Below are positions 3,362 to 11,407 of a DNA stretch of 31,494 bases, piece by piece. The notes below the pieces were generated by a model that was given only the letters and a program-made list of their open reading frames with translations, had not been told where the DNA came from and did no database searches. The stretch lies in assembly GCA_029880025.1 (NCBI GenBank), contig JAOUPE010000001.1, forward strand, positions 1 through 31,494, read 5' to 3'. A program made the translations under genes and the position numbers. The DNA comes from a candidate division WOR-3 bacterium. Its GTDB lineage: Bacteria > Hydrothermota > Tepidihabitantia > Tepidihabitantales > JAOUPE01. Within the stretch, counting starts at the first letter, position 1. Each line of letters opens with the position of its first letter.

Positions 3362-3390
3362 TTGACAAAAGATGAAAAATAAGTTATTAT
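3362..3390 (+). promoter_or_regulatory. Putative sigma70 promoter of the exopolysaccharide operon
   Basis: TTGACA-17 nt-TATTAT. Confidence 0.7.
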
Positions 3391-3524
3391 ATATGGGCTA
3401 TCCGAGAACTTGTTTTGATAGCACAAAAGGCAACAGGAGGCAGATGTACTACTCAACTTCGAAGAAAAGTGAATTCAGGTTCTATTAACATAATTTTTGT
3501 TTTGTTTGCGGTAAGGAGGTGTAA

Positions 3525-4898
3525 ATGTTATTCCCGAAACTTAAGACTGGATTCAACCTAATCGATGATTTATGGCAAGGGTTCTTTAAAGGTAGAACCT
3601 ATTTGTTGAGTGGACCGGTCGATTCGGGAAAGACAACTTTTGCCCTGCAGTATGCCTTAAAAGGTTTAGCCTCAAAAGAAAAAATCGTCTTTTTTAGCGA
3701 TGAGCGACCCGAAGATGTTTTGCTTCGAGCCGAAGCTTTACAACTCGGCTCAACCAAAAAGGCATGTTTTGATTTAACCGCCGGTTTCGAAAATGGCGAT
3801 TTTTTAATTTTTAATATCGGCTTGGATGATAAAACCAAAATAATTACCGACCAGCTGCTCAATCAGACAAGCCATGAGATTAGCCAAATTGTCGAAAAAG
3901 AACAACCGGTTAGATTAATCTTTGACCAGATTACATTCCTTCTGCAATACAAGGAATTCGAAACACTAAAACAAGATATTAAGGAGTTGATTTATTCGTT
4001 TGAGAAATCTAAGGTAACAAACCTGATTACGATTGGTGAACCAGCCAGTAACCAAGCCGAAAAAATTTTAGATTTCTTGAGTTCGCTTGCTACCGCAACA
4101 ATAAAATTGTCTGAGCCAGAAAACGAGAAAAGGAGATTACAACTTCATGCCCGACTCGGACATTATCCTGATTCATATTCGAGTCAGTTTGTAATTCGTC
4201 CGGGTATTGGATTAACCACGATTGAAAAAGTGGTTCCCATAACATTGGAACAGGAAGTGGTCCCGGAAATAACTCCAGAACCAACCTGGCAAGAACCCGA
4301 ACCTGCTGTTTCGCCTGAACCGAGCGTGACTGAAACACCGGTCGTTGAACCAGTCGCGCCGCAACCGGTCGAACCCATTTTTCCTGAGCCAGCACCAGAA
4401 GCCGAAGCTAAACCCTCCGAGGTTTCGGATCGAATCGAACCGATTGAATCGATACCAGAGTATCCAGTTCGGGATTTAGACCGTGATGATTTTACCGGTC
4501 TTTTCAATTTTGACGGTTTGCTTAATATAATTTCCCGGGAAGTGGAGAAAAAGACTCCTTTTTCTTTAATGATTATTTCAATCACAAAAGGGGTGGATAG
4601 CCGAGCGAAACGGTTGCTGCTTTCCCATAAACTCGCTTCGGCGGTCAAATCGGCAATCAGTAAACCGGCACCGGTTGGTAGATATTCAGATAAGATTATT
4701 GCCTATCTCCACAAAACTCCCAAGTTGGAGTCGCAAGAAATGGCAACGATTGTCGAAAACAAAACATTGAAAACACTGATCGCTGAAAACGAAAGTCTTA
4801 AAGGTATCGAAATCAGAGTCGATATTTACGCCTATCCAGAAGATATTCTCTCGATACGTGAAATTGAGACAATTGTCCAAGCCGGAGGTGAACAATGA
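3525..4898 (+). CDS. KaiC/RecA-like ATPase + Pro/Glu-rich linker + degenerate GGDEF-like domain
   Basis: KTGFNLIDD, Walker A GPVDSGKT, Walker B LIFD, FVIRPGIG. Linker PEPTWQEPEPAVSPEP. C-terminal DDFTGLFN (GGDEF N-terminal signature) and VGRYSDKII in place of GRYGGDEF. RBS AAGGAGG. Confidence 0.75.
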   Translation: MLFPKLKTGFNLIDDLWQGFFKGRTYLLSGPVDSGKTTFALQYALKGLASKEKIVFFSDERPEDVLLRAEALQLGSTKKACFDLTAGFENGDFLIFNIGLDDKTKIITDQLLNQTSHEISQIVEKEQPVRLIFDQITFLLQYKEFETLKQDIKELIYSFEKSKVTNLITIGEPASNQAEKILDFLSSLATATIKLSEPENEKRRLQLHARLGHYPDSYSSQFVIRPGIGLTTIEKVVPITLEQEVVPEITPEPTWQEPEPAVSPEPSVTETPVVEPVAPQPVEPIFPEPAPEAEAKPSEVSDRIEPIESIPEYPVRDLDRDDFTGLFNFDGLLNIISREVEKKTPFSLMIISITKGVDSRAKRLLLSHKLASAVKSAISKPAPVGRYSDKIIAYLHKTPKLESQEMATIVENKTLKTLIAENESLKGIEIRVDIYAYPEDILSIREIETIVQAGGEQ

Positions 4899-6799
4899 AG
4901 TTTTTATCGAGTTGTGCCATACTATTTTTCGCTTCAGCTTTTGCCTTTTCGGCATTAGCCGAAGACAATTATTTCATTCGGGCGCAGAAAAATTATGACC
5001 ATGGGCTTTATTCGGAAGCGGTCAACTTTTTAGAAAAGGAGTTAGACCAAAACCCAAAAAACATATCGGCTTGGAAATTGCTTGGCAAGTGTTATTTAGA
5101 GATTGACCGGCTTGATGAAGCAATCGCTGCTTATGAACAGGCAAGAAATCTTGACCCGAATAACCAAGAGATTATTAGCTTGCTTGACCAGGCAAATTGG
5201 GTAAAAAGAGAAAAGTTGGAATCGAACATTCAAAAGTATCAAAATTATCTTATCCGTCATCCGGATGACGCCGAGTATCGACTCAAATTAGCCCGCATGT
5301 ATAAAGATTGTGGCGATTACAAGGCAGCGCAAAGAGAATATGAAATTTATCTGGCGAATAACCCATATGAAGACAAAGTGAAAGAAGAATACTATTCAAT
5401 TGCTCCTGAGCAATCTCACAAAAAGTTTAGTAAGCGAGAAACAAGAACGGGTAAGGTGAAAAGTAAAAAATACCACCCCCTGCCTTCCCCCCCTAAAAAA
5501 GATTGGGAGAAAATTTTAGATAAAGCCCGTGACTTAGTCGGTCAAGAAAAATATGTTTCAGCTGAATCGTTATATGAGAACTATTTAAAACAGAAGCCGA
5601 GCGATACGGTTGTTCTAAAGGAATACGCTCAAATGCTTTCTTGGAATAAACAGTATGAAAAATCAATTGCCGTTTATCGAAAGCTTCTTGAACTAAAACC
5701 TAATGATAAAAATTCCGCCTTTGAGCTGGCACAGGTTTTAAGTTGGGCAGGAAAATACGATGAAGCAATTACTCAATATCAGACCCTTGATACCACGAAT
5801 ATCGAGGTTCTTATCGGACTGGCTCAAACCTATTATTGGAAAGGCGACTATAGAAATGCCCGGTTAACTTATCAGAAAATACTTGCCTTAGACCCGAAGA
5901 ACTTAGAAGCGAAGAAAATGGTTTCAGAACTGCAACAAAGAGAAATTCCAGCTCCTGAATTAAGAGCCAAAGTGAGCAATTTTTGGGACAGCGAAGAATT
6001 CTACTATAAAAATTTCGCGGCTGCCTTGAATATTCATTTAAGCGAAAACACCAGTCTGGAACCCGGCTTCTCGGCCAGGCAATTTGAACAACGCGATGAT
6101 GTCATAACCGGTTATTCCTATTCGATTCGCCTCATGGAGAAATTTTCCGAAACCGTTGATGGCGATATTCATTATGCTTATAATTATTATGATTGCGTTC
6201 CCAACACGCAAGCTTATGGGCTTGCCTTGAATTACTATCCTTATTTGCTAACCAACTTTAGTTTCAGTTATGACCATCACGATATCATTTATGATGTCTC
6301 GACTACCCGGTCATTGATTCAGGCGATTACAACCGACAATTTTGAAGTATCGGGCAGCCATCAATTTGAAAAGGGGTATGGGATAATCGGGAGTTATCTT
6401 TATGGCATGTATTCGGATGATAACCGATTACAAAATCCACAAGCGCGATTGTACTACCAACTGTTTAAAATCCTGCGCATCGGCTATGCTTATAATATGA
6501 TTACATATTCTTTTGCTTCGCCCTGGTACTGGTCACCCGATTTTTATCAGACCCATTCGATCTGGTTTGAACTGGCTAATGGTTCAAAATCACCGTTATC
6601 TTATTATGTGAGTGCCGAAATTGCGAAAGTGACCAATTCCTCGAAACTGGCTCGTTCCATCTTTGCCGATTTCGCTTTGAACCCGTCCCAACGATTTAGT
6701 ATCGGCTTCCAATTCTCTTATTCTGAGTTGAGCCGAACCAAAGATGCGCCTGCGTACTGGCAACAATCATTAGCCGCCTATTTGAAACTACAACTTTAA
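4895..6799 (+). CDS. Exported TPR protein with C-terminal predicted outer-membrane beta-barrel (PgaA/BcsC/PelB-like architecture)
   Basis: N-terminal signal peptide ending ALA-ED. Two TPR blocks (AWKLLGKCY...AIAAYEQARNLDP; LAQTYYWKGDY...ILALDPKN). Last ~280 aa have alternating aromatic/polar strands, ending YLKLQL. Confidence 0.75.
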   Translation: MKFLSSCAILFFASAFAFSALAEDNYFIRAQKNYDHGLYSEAVNFLEKELDQNPKNISAWKLLGKCYLEIDRLDEAIAAYEQARNLDPNNQEIISLLDQANWVKREKLESNIQKYQNYLIRHPDDAEYRLKLARMYKDCGDYKAAQREYEIYLANNPYEDKVKEEYYSIAPEQSHKKFSKRETRTGKVKSKKYHPLPSPPKKDWEKILDKARDLVGQEKYVSAESLYENYLKQKPSDTVVLKEYAQMLSWNKQYEKSIAVYRKLLELKPNDKNSAFELAQVLSWAGKYDEAITQYQTLDTTNIEVLIGLAQTYYWKGDYRNARLTYQKILALDPKNLEAKKMVSELQQREIPAPELRAKVSNFWDSEEFYYKNFAAALNIHLSENTSLEPGFSARQFEQRDDVITGYSYSIRLMEKFSETVDGDIHYAYNYYDCVPNTQAYGLALNYYPYLLTNFSFSYDHHDIIYDVSTTRSLIQAITTDNFEVSGSHQFEKGYGIIGSYLYGMYSDDNRLQNPQARLYYQLFKILRIGYAYNMITYSFASPWYWSPDFYQTHSIWFELANGSKSPLSYYVSAEIAKVTNSSKLARSIFADFALNPSQRFSIGFQFSYSELSRTKDAPAYWQQSLAAYLKLQL

Positions 6800-6804
6800 T
6801 CAAA

Positions 6805-8175
6805 ATGGCGGATAATAAAAATACTATGAAAACCGCGGCGCAAAAAGGTTCCCGGTATGGTTTATCGCTTTTCATTCTGGTAATACTTTGTCTGATTTTT
6901 GGATTTATTACCTATTATTTCAACCGCCGGTCGTTTCTGCCATTTGGCTCAACCTTAATCATTGCCCTGACCGTAGTGCTTTTAGCCTTTTTGATTCTAT
7001 TAATAATTCGTTACTTTTTTACATTGTTTTTTGCCTATCTTCATCAAACGAGTGCCGGACCAAGCGAAAAATCCGACTTTTTCCCGTTTGTCTCAATTCT
7101 CGTACCGGTTTATAATGAAGGTAAAGTGATTAAATCGGTGCTCGATTCACTTTTGAATATTGATTATCCTGATTATGAAATCATTGTGATTGATGATGGC
7201 TCAACCGATGATACCTTACAGGAAATTCAAGACTCAAAAGGCAAAAGTCAAAATTCAAAACTAAAGGTGTTTTCGAAAAAAAATGCGGGTAAAGCTTGTG
7301 CGCTTAATTATGGGTTAAAACAGGCTAAGGGTGAATTTATCGCCTGCATTGATGGTGACAGTCTAATCAATCCCGAAGCGTTGCGGCTCGGCTTGCGTCA
7401 TTTTTCTGATCCGAAAGTTGGCGCAGTAGCCGGAAATGTTAAGGCAATCAATCGGCAAAAAATGGTCTCGACCCTTCAGGCGTTAGAATATGTTGAAGGA
7501 TTGAATATGCCGCGTCGTGCCCAGGGGTTATTCGGTTTAGTAAATATTGTGCCCGGACCGATTGGGTTTTTCCGACGCTCGGCACTCGAAGCGGTGGGCG
7601 GTTATTCCAAAGATACCTTTGCCGAAGATTGCGATTTGACCCTGAAAATTTTAAGCATAGGGTGGAAAGTACGTTACGAGCCGGAAGCATTAGCTTGGAC
7701 CGAGGTTCCGGAAACCTGGATTGATTTAGTTAAACAACGCTACCGCTGGACGCGCGGTATCATTCAATCGATTCGTAAACACAAGAGCATTCTTTTTAAC
7801 CCGAGCATAAATTTTGGCGATACGCTAATCTTCTGGCAAATGATATACGAAGCAATCATCTGGCCGGCAATGAATATTTTTGCTCACCTATTCTTTATCA
7901 TCGTTGCTTTAATTTTCGGCTTCTCGCCCTTAATCGTTTTTTGGTGGCTCCAACTTTTAGCTTTAGATATGATGGCAGCGCTTTTCTGCGTTGCCTGTGA
8001 AGAAGAACAGATGAAATTGATTCCTTATGCGATACTCTATCGATTGATTTTCATTCTCATCATTGATATCATCAAAGTGTTTGCCACGATTGAAGAGTTC
8101 TTGAGTTTGGGTATGAGCTGGGATAAGTTAGAACGGAACGGAAGAGTCAACGGCATAATTAAGGAACCAGTATGA
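6805..8175 (+). CDS. Processive GT2 polysaccharide synthase, PgaC/IcaA-like
   Basis: PVYNE, IDDGSTD, GKACALN, DGD, QALEY, AEDCD, QRYRW (QxxRW); N- and C-terminal TM helices; no PilZ domain. Confidence 0.88.
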   Translation: MADNKNTMKTAAQKGSRYGLSLFILVILCLIFGFITYYFNRRSFLPFGSTLIIALTVVLLAFLILLIIRYFFTLFFAYLHQTSAGPSEKSDFFPFVSILVPVYNEGKVIKSVLDSLLNIDYPDYEIIVIDDGSTDDTLQEIQDSKGKSQNSKLKVFSKKNAGKACALNYGLKQAKGEFIACIDGDSLINPEALRLGLRHFSDPKVGAVAGNVKAINRQKMVSTLQALEYVEGLNMPRRAQGLFGLVNIVPGPIGFFRRSALEAVGGYSKDTFAEDCDLTLKILSIGWKVRYEPEALAWTEVPETWIDLVKQRYRWTRGIIQSIRKHKSILFNPSINFGDTLIFWQMIYEAIIWPAMNIFAHLFFIIVALIFGFSPLIVFWWLQLLALDMMAALFCVACEEEQMKLIPYAILYRLIFILIIDIIKVFATIEEFLSLGMSWDKLERNGRVNGIIKEPV

Positions 8176-8480
8176 ATACCGTAATCGCAGTATTATCAAC
8201 CATCATTCTTGCGGTAACAGTCCTTACGCTATTTCTGGGGATTTTTGCCTACATCGTTTATAAAGCACGTAAGCGCAGCAGCCGACGTAAACCCAAGCCA
8301 GAAAAATTTGCCGAAAAACCAAAGCCAGCTGAAATCGTAAAGGAACCAGAACCAATAGTAGAGATAAAACCAGAAGTCCCTCCCCGACCCCCAATATCGG
8401 TTGAACGACCCCAGACCAGCGGATTAATCCGTCGCTATGAACCAGAAAAGAAAAAGGAGAAACGGGTAGAATGGAGATGA
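8172..8480 (+). CDS. Small single-TM protein with basic, Pro/Glu-rich tail
   Basis: ATGA overlaps with both neighbours; one hydrophobic helix followed by KARKRSSRRK. Confidence 0.7.
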   Translation: MNTVIAVLSTIILAVTVLTLFLGIFAYIVYKARKRSSRRKPKPEKFAEKPKPAEIVKEPEPIVEIKPEVPPRPPISVERPQTSGLIRRYEPEKKKEKRVEWR

Positions 8481-10324
8481 GTTATCGTCGAATTAATCTC
8501 CTCACCCTTTTAATATTAGGTCTCGTTATCGTCTTGGTCAGTATTGCGGCTTATTATTTTACGCTTCAAATCGTCCGGGGCGAAATGCGTCTGAAAAATG
8601 TGAAATTGGCAATTCCAACCACCGCACCAGCAAAAAAATCAAGACCAATTACTGCCCGGGTTGTCCTTTTGATTTCGGATTATAGGCAAAAACGATCGGG
8701 AACAAGTAATACTGATAACTTCATTAAAGGTTGGCAAAATTTTTTCGCAAAAGAAAATATATCTTATGATACAATTCGCGACCAAGACCTTGAGCTGAAT
8801 AAAATAAAATACGATATTTTAATTCTTCCCTATAATCCATCCCTTCCCGAACTGGAAATAAATCGAATTAGCGAATTTTTAAATAATGGGGGAGGTATAA
8901 TTGCGTGTGGTGAATGCGGATTTATGGATGAAAAAGGTGAAATCAGGCAGCCAACTTTTCTGAATCGAGTGCTTGGTATCACCAAAATTAACGAAATCGA
9001 CCAATCAATAAAATCCTATGTTCCATTAACCTTAAAGACCAATTCACCATTAACGGTTGATATTGCTTTGGGAGCACAATTAGGTTTGACCACCGAGTAT
9101 GGCTGTGTAAAAGCAAGGATTATCGAAGAAAGAACGGTTCAGGACGGCTACTTCTACGACTCCGAAGTTGACAAAGGAATCGCTCTGGAAGAAATTAAGA
9201 ATAGTACTGGTTTATGCCATGGTTCTTATGGTAAGGGTAGATTTGTCTGGTTAGGTTTTAATGTCTTTTCATTTACCGGCGATGATTTCACCCAGAAGAA
9301 CTATGTAAAATTTTTGCGAAATGTTTTGCTCTGGACCGCAAGCAAACCGCTTGCCAGAATAAAGACCTGGCCCAAGGATTATCACATGGCAGTAGTAATC
9401 TCTGGTGATATTGAACATAAATTCACCAATGTAGAAAATGTGATAGATATTTTACAAGAATATCGAATAAAGGGTTCCTTTTTTATCCTCTCCGATTTAG
9501 CTGAGGTCAATGTCGATATGGTTAGAGCGATGGCAAAAAATGGCGAAATCGGGATTCATGGCGATGAACACACTGTTTTCAAAGGTCAACACTATGATTT
9601 ACAACTGGAACGGTTACAACAAGCAAAGCAAGTCTTGGAAGGAATTTCCGGACAGAAGATAATCGGGTTTCGACCACCTTATGGCAATTATGATGAGAAT
9701 ACGGTGCGTGCTTTAAATGAACTCGGAATAAATTATTTAACTTCAAGCATAACCGGTGGGACCAATATCGACCCGTATTTTATTCCTTATTTTGAAGATT
9801 TTGTTGTCATCCCCAAGACCAACAAAGATGATTACGACCTGTTTTATCGGGATTCGATTACCGATCCCGAGGCAGTGTTAAATGAACTTAAGGACGAGTT
9901 TGACGGATTATACGATTTGGGCGGTTTCTTTTCTCTCAGTTATCATACTCAGATTTTAGCACTTGATACCAACTGTGGGGTCATTTCTGACCTGATTGGC
10001 TATATCAAGCCAAAAAATGTTTGGATTGCGACCTGGCAAGAGATTACCGATTGGTGGCGAAAAAAGCGAAACCTTGAACTTACAGTCCAGGAAAAAGGGA
10101 GTAAACAGTTTATAGTTACGGTAACCAATTCTGGTAAAGATGCGGTTGAAGATTTTAATATCCAAATCTTTCCGCAGATTATTTTTCCGCTAACCCAGAT
10201 TAAATCTGATTTAAAGGAAACCTTAAAAAGGGATTTTGACCCTCAAACCGGTAGCTTTAGTATCCCAATTAAAAAACTCGAACCAAAAGCCAAGCGTCGA
10301 ATTACCATCACCCTGGGTTCTTGA
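8477..10324 (+). CDS. Membrane-anchored multi-domain polysaccharide deacetylase (CE4/NodB)
   Basis: N-terminal TM; flavodoxin-like/GATase-like middle domain (YDILILPY...GGGIIACG); CE4 motifs GDIEH, HGDEH, FRPPYG, SYHT; beta-rich Ig-like C-terminus. Start 8477 chosen from the ATGA overlap (track gives 8471). Confidence 0.8.
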   Translation: MSYRRINLLTLLILGLVIVLVSIAAYYFTLQIVRGEMRLKNVKLAIPTTAPAKKSRPITARVVLLISDYRQKRSGTSNTDNFIKGWQNFFAKENISYDTIRDQDLELNKIKYDILILPYNPSLPELEINRISEFLNNGGGIIACGECGFMDEKGEIRQPTFLNRVLGITKINEIDQSIKSYVPLTLKTNSPLTVDIALGAQLGLTTEYGCVKARIIEERTVQDGYFYDSEVDKGIALEEIKNSTGLCHGSYGKGRFVWLGFNVFSFTGDDFTQKNYVKFLRNVLLWTASKPLARIKTWPKDYHMAVVISGDIEHKFTNVENVIDILQEYRIKGSFFILSDLAEVNVDMVRAMAKNGEIGIHGDEHTVFKGQHYDLQLERLQQAKQVLEGISGQKIIGFRPPYGNYDENTVRALNELGINYLTSSITGGTNIDPYFIPYFEDFVVIPKTNKDDYDLFYRDSITDPEAVLNELKDEFDGLYDLGGFFSLSYHTQILALDTNCGVISDLIGYIKPKNVWIATWQEITDWWRKKRNLELTVQEKGSKQFIVTVTNSGKDAVEDFNIQIFPQIIFPLTQIKSDLKETLKRDFDPQTGSFSIPIKKLEPKAKRRITITLGS

Positions 10325-10333
10325 AATAAGAGC

Positions 10334-11407
10334 TCACCGATTCAAATCCTCGCAAGTTAATTTATTGAGTCGCTTCAATACTCTTAAAGCGAATAAAGTA
10401 ATCCATTTGCTTGGTCTGCCCACTGGTTCAATATTGGTTTGCATTCTTCCGGTTGGCGAATTCTCAAGAATCCAGGTTCTATCCTTTTGCCGTTTCTTTA
10501 GTAAAATGTCTAAGGCATCGTTTAATCTCTCATCATTAGTATAACCCAATTTGGTCAAAACATTCAATCCTCTTAAAATATCATAGCTGTAAAATCTCGG
10601 CAAACAAAATTTCAGCCAGGATTGTTTGATTGTCTTATAATTGTGGTGGTCAGCTTTAAACAAACGATGCATCAGTAAAAATTCAGCACCGCGGCTGATT
10701 GTATTTTTCATTTCTTCGGTCAAATTTTCTTTTGGTACTTCACTAAAAGCCTCTATTGGACAGATTGTTCCAAAAAAGCAACCATGGGTATCCTTAATAT
10801 GGGCTTTCCAATAAGGGCAAAGCCAACCACCGTCTTGATTCTGAATCTTCACGAGCCAATTCAAAGCTTTTTTGACCCTTGGGTCATTTTCGTAACCCAA
10901 ACGAATTAACGCCGCTGCCATATTGCCGGTTAAGCAGGACAGTTGTTGCTCCCTAATAAGGGATGAAGCCCATTCTTTGAATGGTGGCATTTTCTTTCCT
11001 CTCTTTAAATGCCAATCGTATCGGCGCTTTGCCGTCTTTTCGGTTTCTGACAAAAACCCGCCTTCTTCGTGTTGAAATCGAAAGATGTATTCACAAGCCT
11101 TTTTAACCCTCTGGTCGGTTTGGTCAATTCCCATCTGTGCCAGAATCATGATTGTCCAATAAGAAGACTTGTATTTCGGCAGATAAGGACTAGCTGTTTC
11201 TTCCCAATATCCTTCGGGCTTTTGTTCGGAAAATATTTTGGTTATTACCTTTGAATTGGGAATCGCCGATTTGGCTACATTCAGCTCTAAATCATCTTCT
11301 TTTTTATCCAGTAAGTCTCTTAATGTAAAATATCTAATCGTTTGATTCTCTTCTTCTAAAAGCCATGTAACAATATTCTTTTTAGATAAATTCTTGGACT
11401 GTATCAT
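10334..11407 (-). CDS. Prenyltransferase/squalene-cyclase QW-repeat (alpha/alpha toroid) protein of unknown function
   Basis: Repeated QxxxGxW-type motifs: QKPEGYW, QHEEGGF, QNQDGGW, RQKDRTW. No DxDD motif seen. Confidence 0.65.
   Translation of the reverse strand: MIQSKNLSKKNIVTWLLEEENQTIRYFTLRDLLDKKEDDLELNVAKSAIPNSKVITKIFSEQKPEGYWEETASPYLPKYKSSYWTIMILAQMGIDQTDQRVKKACEYIFRFQHEEGGFLSETEKTAKRRYDWHLKRGKKMPPFKEWASSLIREQQLSCLTGNMAAALIRLGYENDPRVKKALNWLVKIQNQDGGWLCPYWKAHIKDTHGCFFGTICPIEAFSEVPKENLTEEMKNTISRGAEFLLMHRLFKADHHNYKTIKQSWLKFCLPRFYSYDILRGLNVLTKLGYTNDERLNDALDILLKKRQKDRTWILENSPTGRMQTNIEPVGRPSKWITLFALRVLKRLNKLTCEDLNR

Follow-up and report, generated by a model that had tools for sequence, protein, structure and literature searches.

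A KaiC-like ATPase fused to a degenerate GGDEF fold as a candidate c-di-GMP-independent control subunit of a PNAG-like secretion system

We analyzed a stretch of 31,494 nucleotides from an uncultured sediment bacterium of candidate division WOR-3 (hereafter the window) and in it an open reading frame (ORF) at 3525..4898, gene 1 (P0001), whose product of 457 amino acids (aa) is made up of a KaiC-like ATPase domain, a linker and a degenerate GGDEF fold. The gene stands ahead of four genes for parts of a secretion system like that for poly-N-acetylglucosamine (PNAG), and all features described here are on the forward strand unless stated otherwise. A Shine-Dalgarno sequence, AAGGAGG (3513..3519), can be read 5 nt ahead of the gene 1 ATG, and a consensus scan gave TTGACA-17-TATTAT (3362..3390), about 135 nt upstream of the gene, as the best promoter-like site of the region; this site is a pattern match only, with 11/12 consensus positions. 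Since neither a signal peptide nor a transmembrane (TM) segment was visible in the sequence, the gene 1 protein is presumably cytoplasmic and soluble. An initial annotation had described the protein as a KaiC-like ATPase with intact Walker motifs joined to a degenerate GGDEF fold, and this two-domain design was borne out by Pfam, Foldseek and VIA. All the motifs quoted there were located in gene 1, with GPVDSGKT at residues 30-37, LIFD at 131-134, LSSLAT at 185-190 and HARLG at 208-212 in the N-terminal domain, and DDFTGLFN at 321-328, SKPA at 379-382, GRYSDK at 385-390 and RYSD at 386-389 in the C-terminal domain.

The N-terminal domain (residues 1-232, 3525..4220) is a single P-loop ATPase domain of the RecA/KaiC/FlaH type. 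It matches the Pfam KaiC family (PF06745) with an E-value of 1.8e-20 and 73.8 bits, above the curated cut-off of 26.6, and the match covers most of the domain (residues 7-204, profile positions 2-196 of 231). Against the PDB the domain matched KaiC with an E-value of 7e-15 (HMMER), and with the profile and the single sequence alike the KaiC chains came first, ahead of FlaH and of archaeal single-domain KaiC-like proteins. The same families were found with an AlphaFold model of the whole protein, for which the best Foldseek matches were KaiC and FlaH (E about 1e-12, TM-score about 0.7 on single-domain targets). Among the 50 matches listed for this model there were KaiC and FlaH chains only, and the C-terminal domain was therefore modelled separately. 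The source annotations of the homologues are generic ('KaiC/GvpD/RAD55 family ATPase', 'FlaH', 'ATPase domain-containing protein'), and one homologue (P0013) carries the NCBI label 'candidate division WOR-3'.

Conservation was followed in a set of 17 full-length close homologues with 40-62% identity to the window's protein. The motif set of PF06745 is present in full (Walker A, Walker B, the Glu E60 and the Arg R210) and can be aligned to the CI domain of KaiC. The pattern GPxxSGKT of Walker A (GPVDSGKT, 3612..3635) recurs in 17/17 close homologues, as does the pattern hhhhD of Walker B (RLIFD, residues 130-134, 3912..3926). The D59-E60-R61 segment (3699..3707) was aligned by HMMER to the catalytic Glu pair (FEE) of KaiC CI, with E60 kept in 16/17 homologues. 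In the HARLG segment (4146..4160), R210 falls on the Arg of the K-M-R-G (K-x-R-G) segment of KaiC and is invariant (17/17), as is G212. A domain in which ATP binding and hydrolysis persist would be expected to show such conservation. LSSLAT had been aligned by eye with the KaiC segment ISTITD, which holds the S431/T432 sites; the strand register allows this, while HMMER places the segment three residues off, and among the close homologues S186 varies in 5/17 and S187 in 2/17 whereas T190 is invariant. Gene 1 has one RecA domain, as compared to the CI and CII tandem of circadian KaiC, and both KaiC halves align there. A search of the window's own genome (82% complete) gave no KaiB (PF07689). 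This genome also holds two more ORFs with a match to the KaiC family (C423:5398-6009 and C384:1108-1332, 449 and 354 aa), which are probably RadA/DnaB-type or other KaiC-like proteins.

Between the two domains lies a Pro/Glu-rich stretch of 77 aa (23% Pro, 22% Glu; residues 233-309, 4221..4451), in agreement with the Pro/Glu linker reported initially. It is predicted to be disordered, as the predicted local distance difference test score (pLDDT) of the AlphaFold model drops to about 31-36, below 50, and on this model the linker is a flexible tether rather than a domain. Its length ranges from 55 to 102 aa and its identity among homologues is 24%, as compared to 61-63% for both domains, which argues that both domains are under selection.

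The C-terminal domain (residues 310-457, 4452..4895) is a catalytically dead GGDEF fold, as judged from its model, Foldseek, VIA and profiles. Taken in isolation it gave no match to the Pfam GGDEF family (PF00990) even at E<=10, and a match to FAM220 (E 0.06) was judged to be a chance match; evidence for the fold therefore had to come from profiles and structures. The profile built from the close family alone (A3) ranked GGDEF chains first in the PDB (6KHU, E 0.0012; 6D9M, 0.013; FimX, 0.044), and 4/5 of its PDB matches at E<=10 were GGDEF chains. With two distant relatives added, the profile (A2) gave 17 PDB matches, all to GGDEF proteins and with a best E-value of 8.6e-7. In genomes of the phylum A2 also matched ordinary diguanylate cyclases (E 1e-13 to 1e-7), which supports homology of the domain sequence to GGDEF and makes this profile unusable for counting family members outside the order. 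Modelled alone, the domain had a pLDDT of 89.9 and a predicted TM-score of 0.86, and the model has the alpha-beta-alpha-alpha-beta-beta-alpha-beta-alpha order of a GGDEF fold. The best 50 Foldseek matches of this model in the PDB were all GGDEF domains. In an exhaustive VIA-align search of 48,161 chains, 33 GGDEF chains were on top (Z 13.4 to 9.4); PelD (Z 8.7) and BcsE (Z 8.5) came next, ahead of unrelated palm-like folds (Z about 7). Failure of this domain to model as a GGDEF fold had been named beforehand as what would speak against the annotation, and the pLDDT and the top Z show that it does model as one.

When the domain was aligned to canonical cyclases from its phylum, RASD-IVA-RY-GGEEF corresponded to SKPA-PVG-RY-(gap)SDKI, which upheld the register in which the inhibitory site (I-site) and the active site had been read initially. 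The DxLTGLxN start is retained as DDFTGLFN, while the DxFKxxN metal/phosphate loop after strand 1 is removed by a deletion of six residues, and the GHxxGD of canonical cyclases is replaced. The RxGGDEF hairpin is reduced to RY-SDKI by a one-residue deletion (GRYSDK, 4677..4694), and the C-terminal part with the canonical AK..GRN segment is missing. Because the hairpin reads -SDKI and the metal loop is deleted, the domain cannot, on its sequence, be a cyclase. At the RxxD position of the I-site, five residues upstream of GGDEF, the window's protein has SKPA (4659..4670), and the close homologues have [SNGHAL][KRQE]P[AVLFT] in 17/17 cases, never R...D. Invariant residues in the pocket region are D321, T324, N328, K362 and R386.

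Synthase-dependent exopolysaccharide systems (cellulose, PNAG, Pel, alginate) are textbook cases of control by cyclic di-GMP (c-di-GMP), and the initial annotation had suggested that the gene 1 protein possibly binds this nucleotide. The window's order was sampled with 61 genomes (G000-G060; 25 genera, 45 genomes at least 90% complete); GGDEF (PF00990) was found in 0/61 and EAL (PF00563) likewise in 0/61, and in the window's own genome, at 82% completeness, GGDEF and PilZ domains were not found. In a sample of the phylum GGDEF was present in 98/151 genomes, often in 4 to 22 copies, with all positives outside the window's order. A lineage-wide loss of c-di-GMP turnover in the order thus appears to have taken place, and with these counts the cells have no evident means to make or degrade c-di-GMP. 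In the A2 search over the phylum, the gene 1 family in the strict sense (E <1e-30) was seen only in two families of the order, f1 (2/2) and f4 (6/6), which retain a GGDEF-fold protein despite the lack of cyclases in the 61 genomes. Among distant relatives a strict RxxD was found in 7/24 and the I-site Asp in 19/24; RxxD is kept in P0023, whose operon is of this kind, in P0132 and P0021 and in four more. The simplest reading of these sequences is that the family once had an I-site, which was lost in this lineage along with the cyclases. The suggestion of c-di-GMP binding was therefore not sustained by the I-site (absent in 17/17), by the order-wide counts or by the own genome, in which PilZ was not found, and c-di-GMP sensing by the gene 1 protein is unlikely. 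RYSD, proposed as an alternative RxxD, fared no better, as it is part of what was once the active-site hairpin and varies across the wider family. The only cyclic dinucleotide evidently made is c-di-AMP, as the own genome encodes a diadenylate cyclase (DAC) domain (C272:80-436); RelA/SpoT was not found in this genome (82% complete).

The genes that follow are of the Pga type. The stop of gene 1 and the start of gene 2 overlap in ATGA at 4895-4898, and this is followed by a gap of 5 nt and then by overlaps of 4 and 10 nt, so that the genes at 3525-10324 form one tightly coupled unit of five. Gene 2 (4895..6799) encodes an exported protein with tetratricopeptide repeats (TPR) and a beta-barrel-like C-terminal half, a PgaA/BcsC-like porin as judged from Pfam TPR families, weak NCBIfam matches to PgaA and BcsC, a signal peptide and its C-terminal sequence. 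Gene 3 (6805..8175) encodes a processive family 2 glycosyltransferase (GT2) of the PgaC/IcaA-like kind with flanking TM helices, a QRYRW motif (QxxRW) and DxD and ED motifs; it matches Pfam GT2 and best TIGR03937 (E 1.6e-70), at 238 bits, which is under the equivalog cut-off of 422. The product of gene 4 (8172..8480) is a single-pass membrane protein of 102 aa. Its TM helix hardly varies, whereas the Pro/Glu/Lys spacer between this helix and a conserved basic motif at the C-terminus does; the motif, L-I-R-R-Y-E-P-E-K-K-K-E-K-R-x-E-W-R, may, as a conjecture from the sequence, dock a cytoplasmic partner. Similarity of this protein to PgaD or IcaD was not found in Pfam and NCBIfam scans, which gave no family match. 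Gene 5 (8471..10324) encodes a membrane-anchored polysaccharide deacetylase of carbohydrate esterase family 4 (CE4; PF01522, E 3.7e-20), with a putative PgaB/IcaB-like function. Besides its N-terminal TM anchor it has an extra domain of about 250 aa with weak matches to Glyco_hydro_42M and ABC_transp_aux, which presumably differs from the second domain of PgaB. The content of a Pga-type system, that is a TPR porin, a CE4 deacetylase and a small membrane partner, is thus found around the synthase. Converging on the end of the operon is a gene on the reverse strand (10334-11407) for a protein of 357 aa with weak matches to squalene-hopene-cyclase/prenyltransferase repeats; its counterpart, 72% identical, also adjoins the operon in the metagenomic locus L001.

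The same order of five genes was found in two metagenomic loci (L001, L003), in a genome of a sister genus (L023), in a distant locus (L012) and in five genomes of family g5 (L024-L028), while the upstream flanks differ among the loci that carry the operon. In L012 the gene 1 homologue has 26% identity to the window's protein by BLASTP and 32% by phmmer, and it is above the Pfam threshold for GGDEF. The TPR partners were checked in five loci and the window, and had signal peptides and barrel-like ends; other distant relatives of gene 1 also have a signal-peptide TPR porin directly downstream. Together with the gene overlaps, the conserved gene order confirmed the earlier assignment of gene 1 to the GT2 operon.

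Within the family the ATPase domain exists in live-looking and dead forms. The orthologue of family g5 (genomes G004, G008, G012, G016 and G019) is about 340-360 aa long (L006:880-1902, P0081); an acidic stretch stands where Walker A would be, no catalytic Glu is left and the Asp of Walker B varies, the RecA domain lacks its last two strands, and the linker is down to about 10 residues. The g5 form retains the GGDEF-fold domain and the operon, and it too has no RxxD at the I-site position. Some other relatives (P0082, P0021 and, weakly, P0106) have a receiver domain between both modules. On sequence, the window's clade is one of few with a fully canonical P-loop, and the family spans the range from a live ATPase to a BcsE-like state of dead RecA, dead receiver and dead GGDEF. 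A search of genome contigs with the profile A1 gave 192 pattern stretches, of which 0 were confirmed by tblastn. One further relative, P0019 (267 aa), combines the second half of a CAP12/Pycsar TIR-like domain with a C-terminal domain 61% identical to that of the window, and may either be left over from a rearrangement or represent a true domain swap; with half a TIR-like domain on a contig without the operon, it was not used as evidence for a swap between TIR and GGDEF* modules.

Degenerate-GGDEF accessory regulators of synthase-dependent polysaccharide systems are a kind already known, which gene 1 would join. BcsE regulates such a system with a RecA-like domain, a degenerate receiver (REC*) and a degenerate GGDEF (GGDEF*); it is recruited to the membrane and oligomerises via its N-terminal domain, a dead RecA fold used for this purpose, while the degenerate GGDEF binds c-di-GMP (PMC7439463). 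Like BcsE (PDB 6YBB, 6YBU), the gene 1 protein would be a cytoplasmic accessory subunit with a RecA/KaiC-like N-terminal domain followed by a degenerate GGDEF fold. The likeness extends to the dead P-loop of the g5 sister lineage, to the small single-pass membrane protein of the operon, which recalls BcsF, and to the relatives with a receiver domain, which match the three-part layout of BcsE. The window's protein differs from BcsE in its intact Walker motifs, in having a disordered linker instead of REC* and in lacking an RxxD I-site; moreover, the window's synthase is PgaC-like and not BcsA, there is no BcsQ or BcsR, and the host order is without c-di-GMP enzymes. Sequence homology to E. coli BcsE was not found with hhalign (probability 0.1% with A1 and 1.1% with A4), the gene 1 product had no match to the BcsE/GIL family of Pfam (PF10995), and the likeness of the GGDEF part is at the level of fold only (Z 8.5, as compared to 13.4 for true cyclases). 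The resemblance to BcsE claimed initially thus stands for the design but not for family membership, and with hhalign probabilities of 0.1-1% the description as ancestral-like is not supported. As far as sequences tell, the relation to BcsE is one of design.

Other known systems share some of these parts. The PelD protein of Pseudomonas aeruginosa (PDB 4DMZ, Z 8.7) is also a degenerate GGDEF regulator in a system with a deacetylase and a TPR porin. It differs in that it is anchored in the membrane, carries a GAF domain where the window's protein has an ATPase and uses an RxxD I-site to bind c-di-GMP; this motif is missing in the window's C-terminal domain. With E. coli PgaABCD and staphylococcal IcaADBC the operon has in common a porin, a GT2 closest to PgaC/IcaA, a CE4 deacetylase and, just behind the synthase, a small membrane protein; it differs in that the GT2 is under the PgaC cut-off (238 vs 422 bits) and that the small protein has one TM helix. 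The Pga system is not known to have an ATPase subunit, and its activation comes from c-di-GMP that binds to PgaC-PgaD. FlaH/ArlH (PDB 4YDS) and KaiC CI have the P-loop, Walker B, catalytic Glu and Arg positions in common with the window's N-terminal domain, which in contrast is fused to a GGDEF fold in a context of polysaccharide secretion, without archaellum or clock partners, KaiB not being found. The closest solved chain by sequence to the C-terminal domain is a 'DGC protein' of Thermotoga maritima (PDB 6KHU), with 24% identity over the Foldseek alignment. As this chain has a GRYSD hairpin, a shortened loop after strand 1 and a YPED end, in addition to the profile match (E 0.0012) and a Z of 12.6, its structure may be one of the same degenerate GGDEF subtype; a paper on 6KHU was not found in the literature search.

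Taken together, we consider it moderately likely that the gene 1 protein is a cytoplasmic, ATP-driven control subunit of a PNAG-like secretion system that works independently of c-di-GMP, by a mechanism that can be outlined as follows. The KaiC-like domain would bind and hydrolyse ATP and form a head-to-tail ring, as its relatives do. A nucleotide-dependent state, possibly with autophosphorylation, would then be relayed through the tethered GGDEF-fold module, which could serve as an adaptor for protein docking or ligand binding on the inner side of the synthase complex, in contact with the GT2, with the basic tail of the 102-aa protein or with both. Polymer synthesis or assembly of the complex would thereby be switched on or off. 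The gene 1 protein would thus fill the place that c-di-GMP receptors have in the Pga, Pel and Bcs systems, though without c-di-GMP; gating of the synthase by ATP, as suggested in the initial annotation, is put forward by analogy.

Several observations weigh against such a role. In family g5 the gene has stayed in the operon although its ATPase domain is dead and truncated, and ATP turnover is therefore not essential to the core role of the family; likewise, in many members of the wider family the Walker A Lys is changed to Arg, or the P-loop is missing. Behind the relative P0039 come a TPR porin and a two-component system, with no GT2 in the 9 kb of downstream sequence covered. The absence of cyclases from the window's own genome is weak evidence, since this genome is 82% complete, and it is the order-wide count that bears the argument. 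Finally, a complex prediction with the GT2 (17-456), the 102-aa protein and the full gene 1 product scored 0.01, as compared to a mark of 0.32; we list this modelling result here, although it gives no answer for or against binding. As the dead-ATPase form of g5 would keep a scaffold or adaptor role, ATP hydrolysis is best seen as a regulatory layer of the window's clade.

Among the alternatives, it is possible but unlikely that the remnant of the pocket in the C-terminal domain (D321, T324, N328, K362, R386) senses GTP, c-di-AMP or a related nucleotide, with the KaiC domain as output. By alignment, N328 is on the Asn of the canonical TGLxNRR motif, which contacts the guanine base in PleD, and even P0081 and P0019 share several polar residues of the pocket without change. 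Allosteric binding of GTP by degenerate GGDEF domains is known from FimX and CC3396-type proteins, and the c-di-AMP synthase domain encoded in the genome is a lead, though no more than that. These points have to be set against the deletion of the DxFK metal/phosphate loop and the loss of the part that bears AK..GRN, and nothing points to one particular ligand.

We think it similarly improbable that the protein is a scaffold for assembly or localisation without signalling, in which the ATPase fold serves oligomerisation and the Walker motifs are an ancestral remnant. The g5 form, in an operon with a dead and truncated ATPase domain, would fit this, as would the many distant relatives without a canonical P-loop and the dead RecA domain through which BcsE oligomerises. 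In the close homologues, however, Walker A, Walker B and the Arg are kept in 17/17 and the Glu in 16/17 at only 40-62% identity, and such retention argues for selection on nucleotide chemistry.

A receptor for c-di-GMP of the BcsE/PelD type, which would activate the synthase perhaps via RYSD on the former hairpin, is very unlikely. BcsE and PelD use their degenerate GGDEF domains in this way (PMC7439463) and were among the structural matches (Z 8.5 and 8.7), and distant relatives in similar operons (P0023, P0132, P0021 and four others) retain the canonical RxxD. The close homologues (17/17, SKPA in the window) and g5, on the other hand, have no RxxD, the wider family does not conserve R and D of RYSD, and such a receptor would have to work in an order with GGDEF and EAL in 0/61 genomes, with PilZ not found in the own genome. 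That gene 1 encodes a RadA/DnaB-like repair ATPase or a clock KaiC that merely lies upstream of the polysaccharide genes is hardly credible, as the weak matches to DnaB_C and RadA models are below cut-offs and limited to the P-loop region, genes 1 and 2 overlap, synteny is kept down to 26-33% identity while the flanks change, and the protein has a single RecA domain, with KaiB not found in the own genome.

In its literature search our analysis found no paper on an architecture of a KaiC-type ATPase with a degenerate GGDEF domain. What the window adds to the known regulators is the form with an intact ATPase, the order-wide absence of c-di-GMP enzymes and the matching loss of the I-site, that is the same parts as in BcsE but with a live-looking ATPase, no c-di-GMP site and a lineage in which no c-di-GMP enzymes were found. 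A broader reading, which we offer tentatively and regard as doubtful, is that in an order that discarded c-di-GMP signalling the only role left to the GGDEF fold is that of output or adaptor module of a KaiC ATPase, that an ATP-driven and possibly autophosphorylating ring switch, in place of a cyclic dinucleotide, gates a PNAG-like synthase, and that the live and dead forms, both found in this order, would show how BcsE-like pseudo-ATPase/pseudo-cyclase regulators arise. The sister forms with live and dead ATPase domains and the distant relatives that keep RxxD make up a ready comparative series. If the ATPase gates the synthase, this would be a second, nucleotide-hydrolysis-based control of biofilm polymer secretion, and a new job for single-domain KaiC-like ATPases in bacteria.

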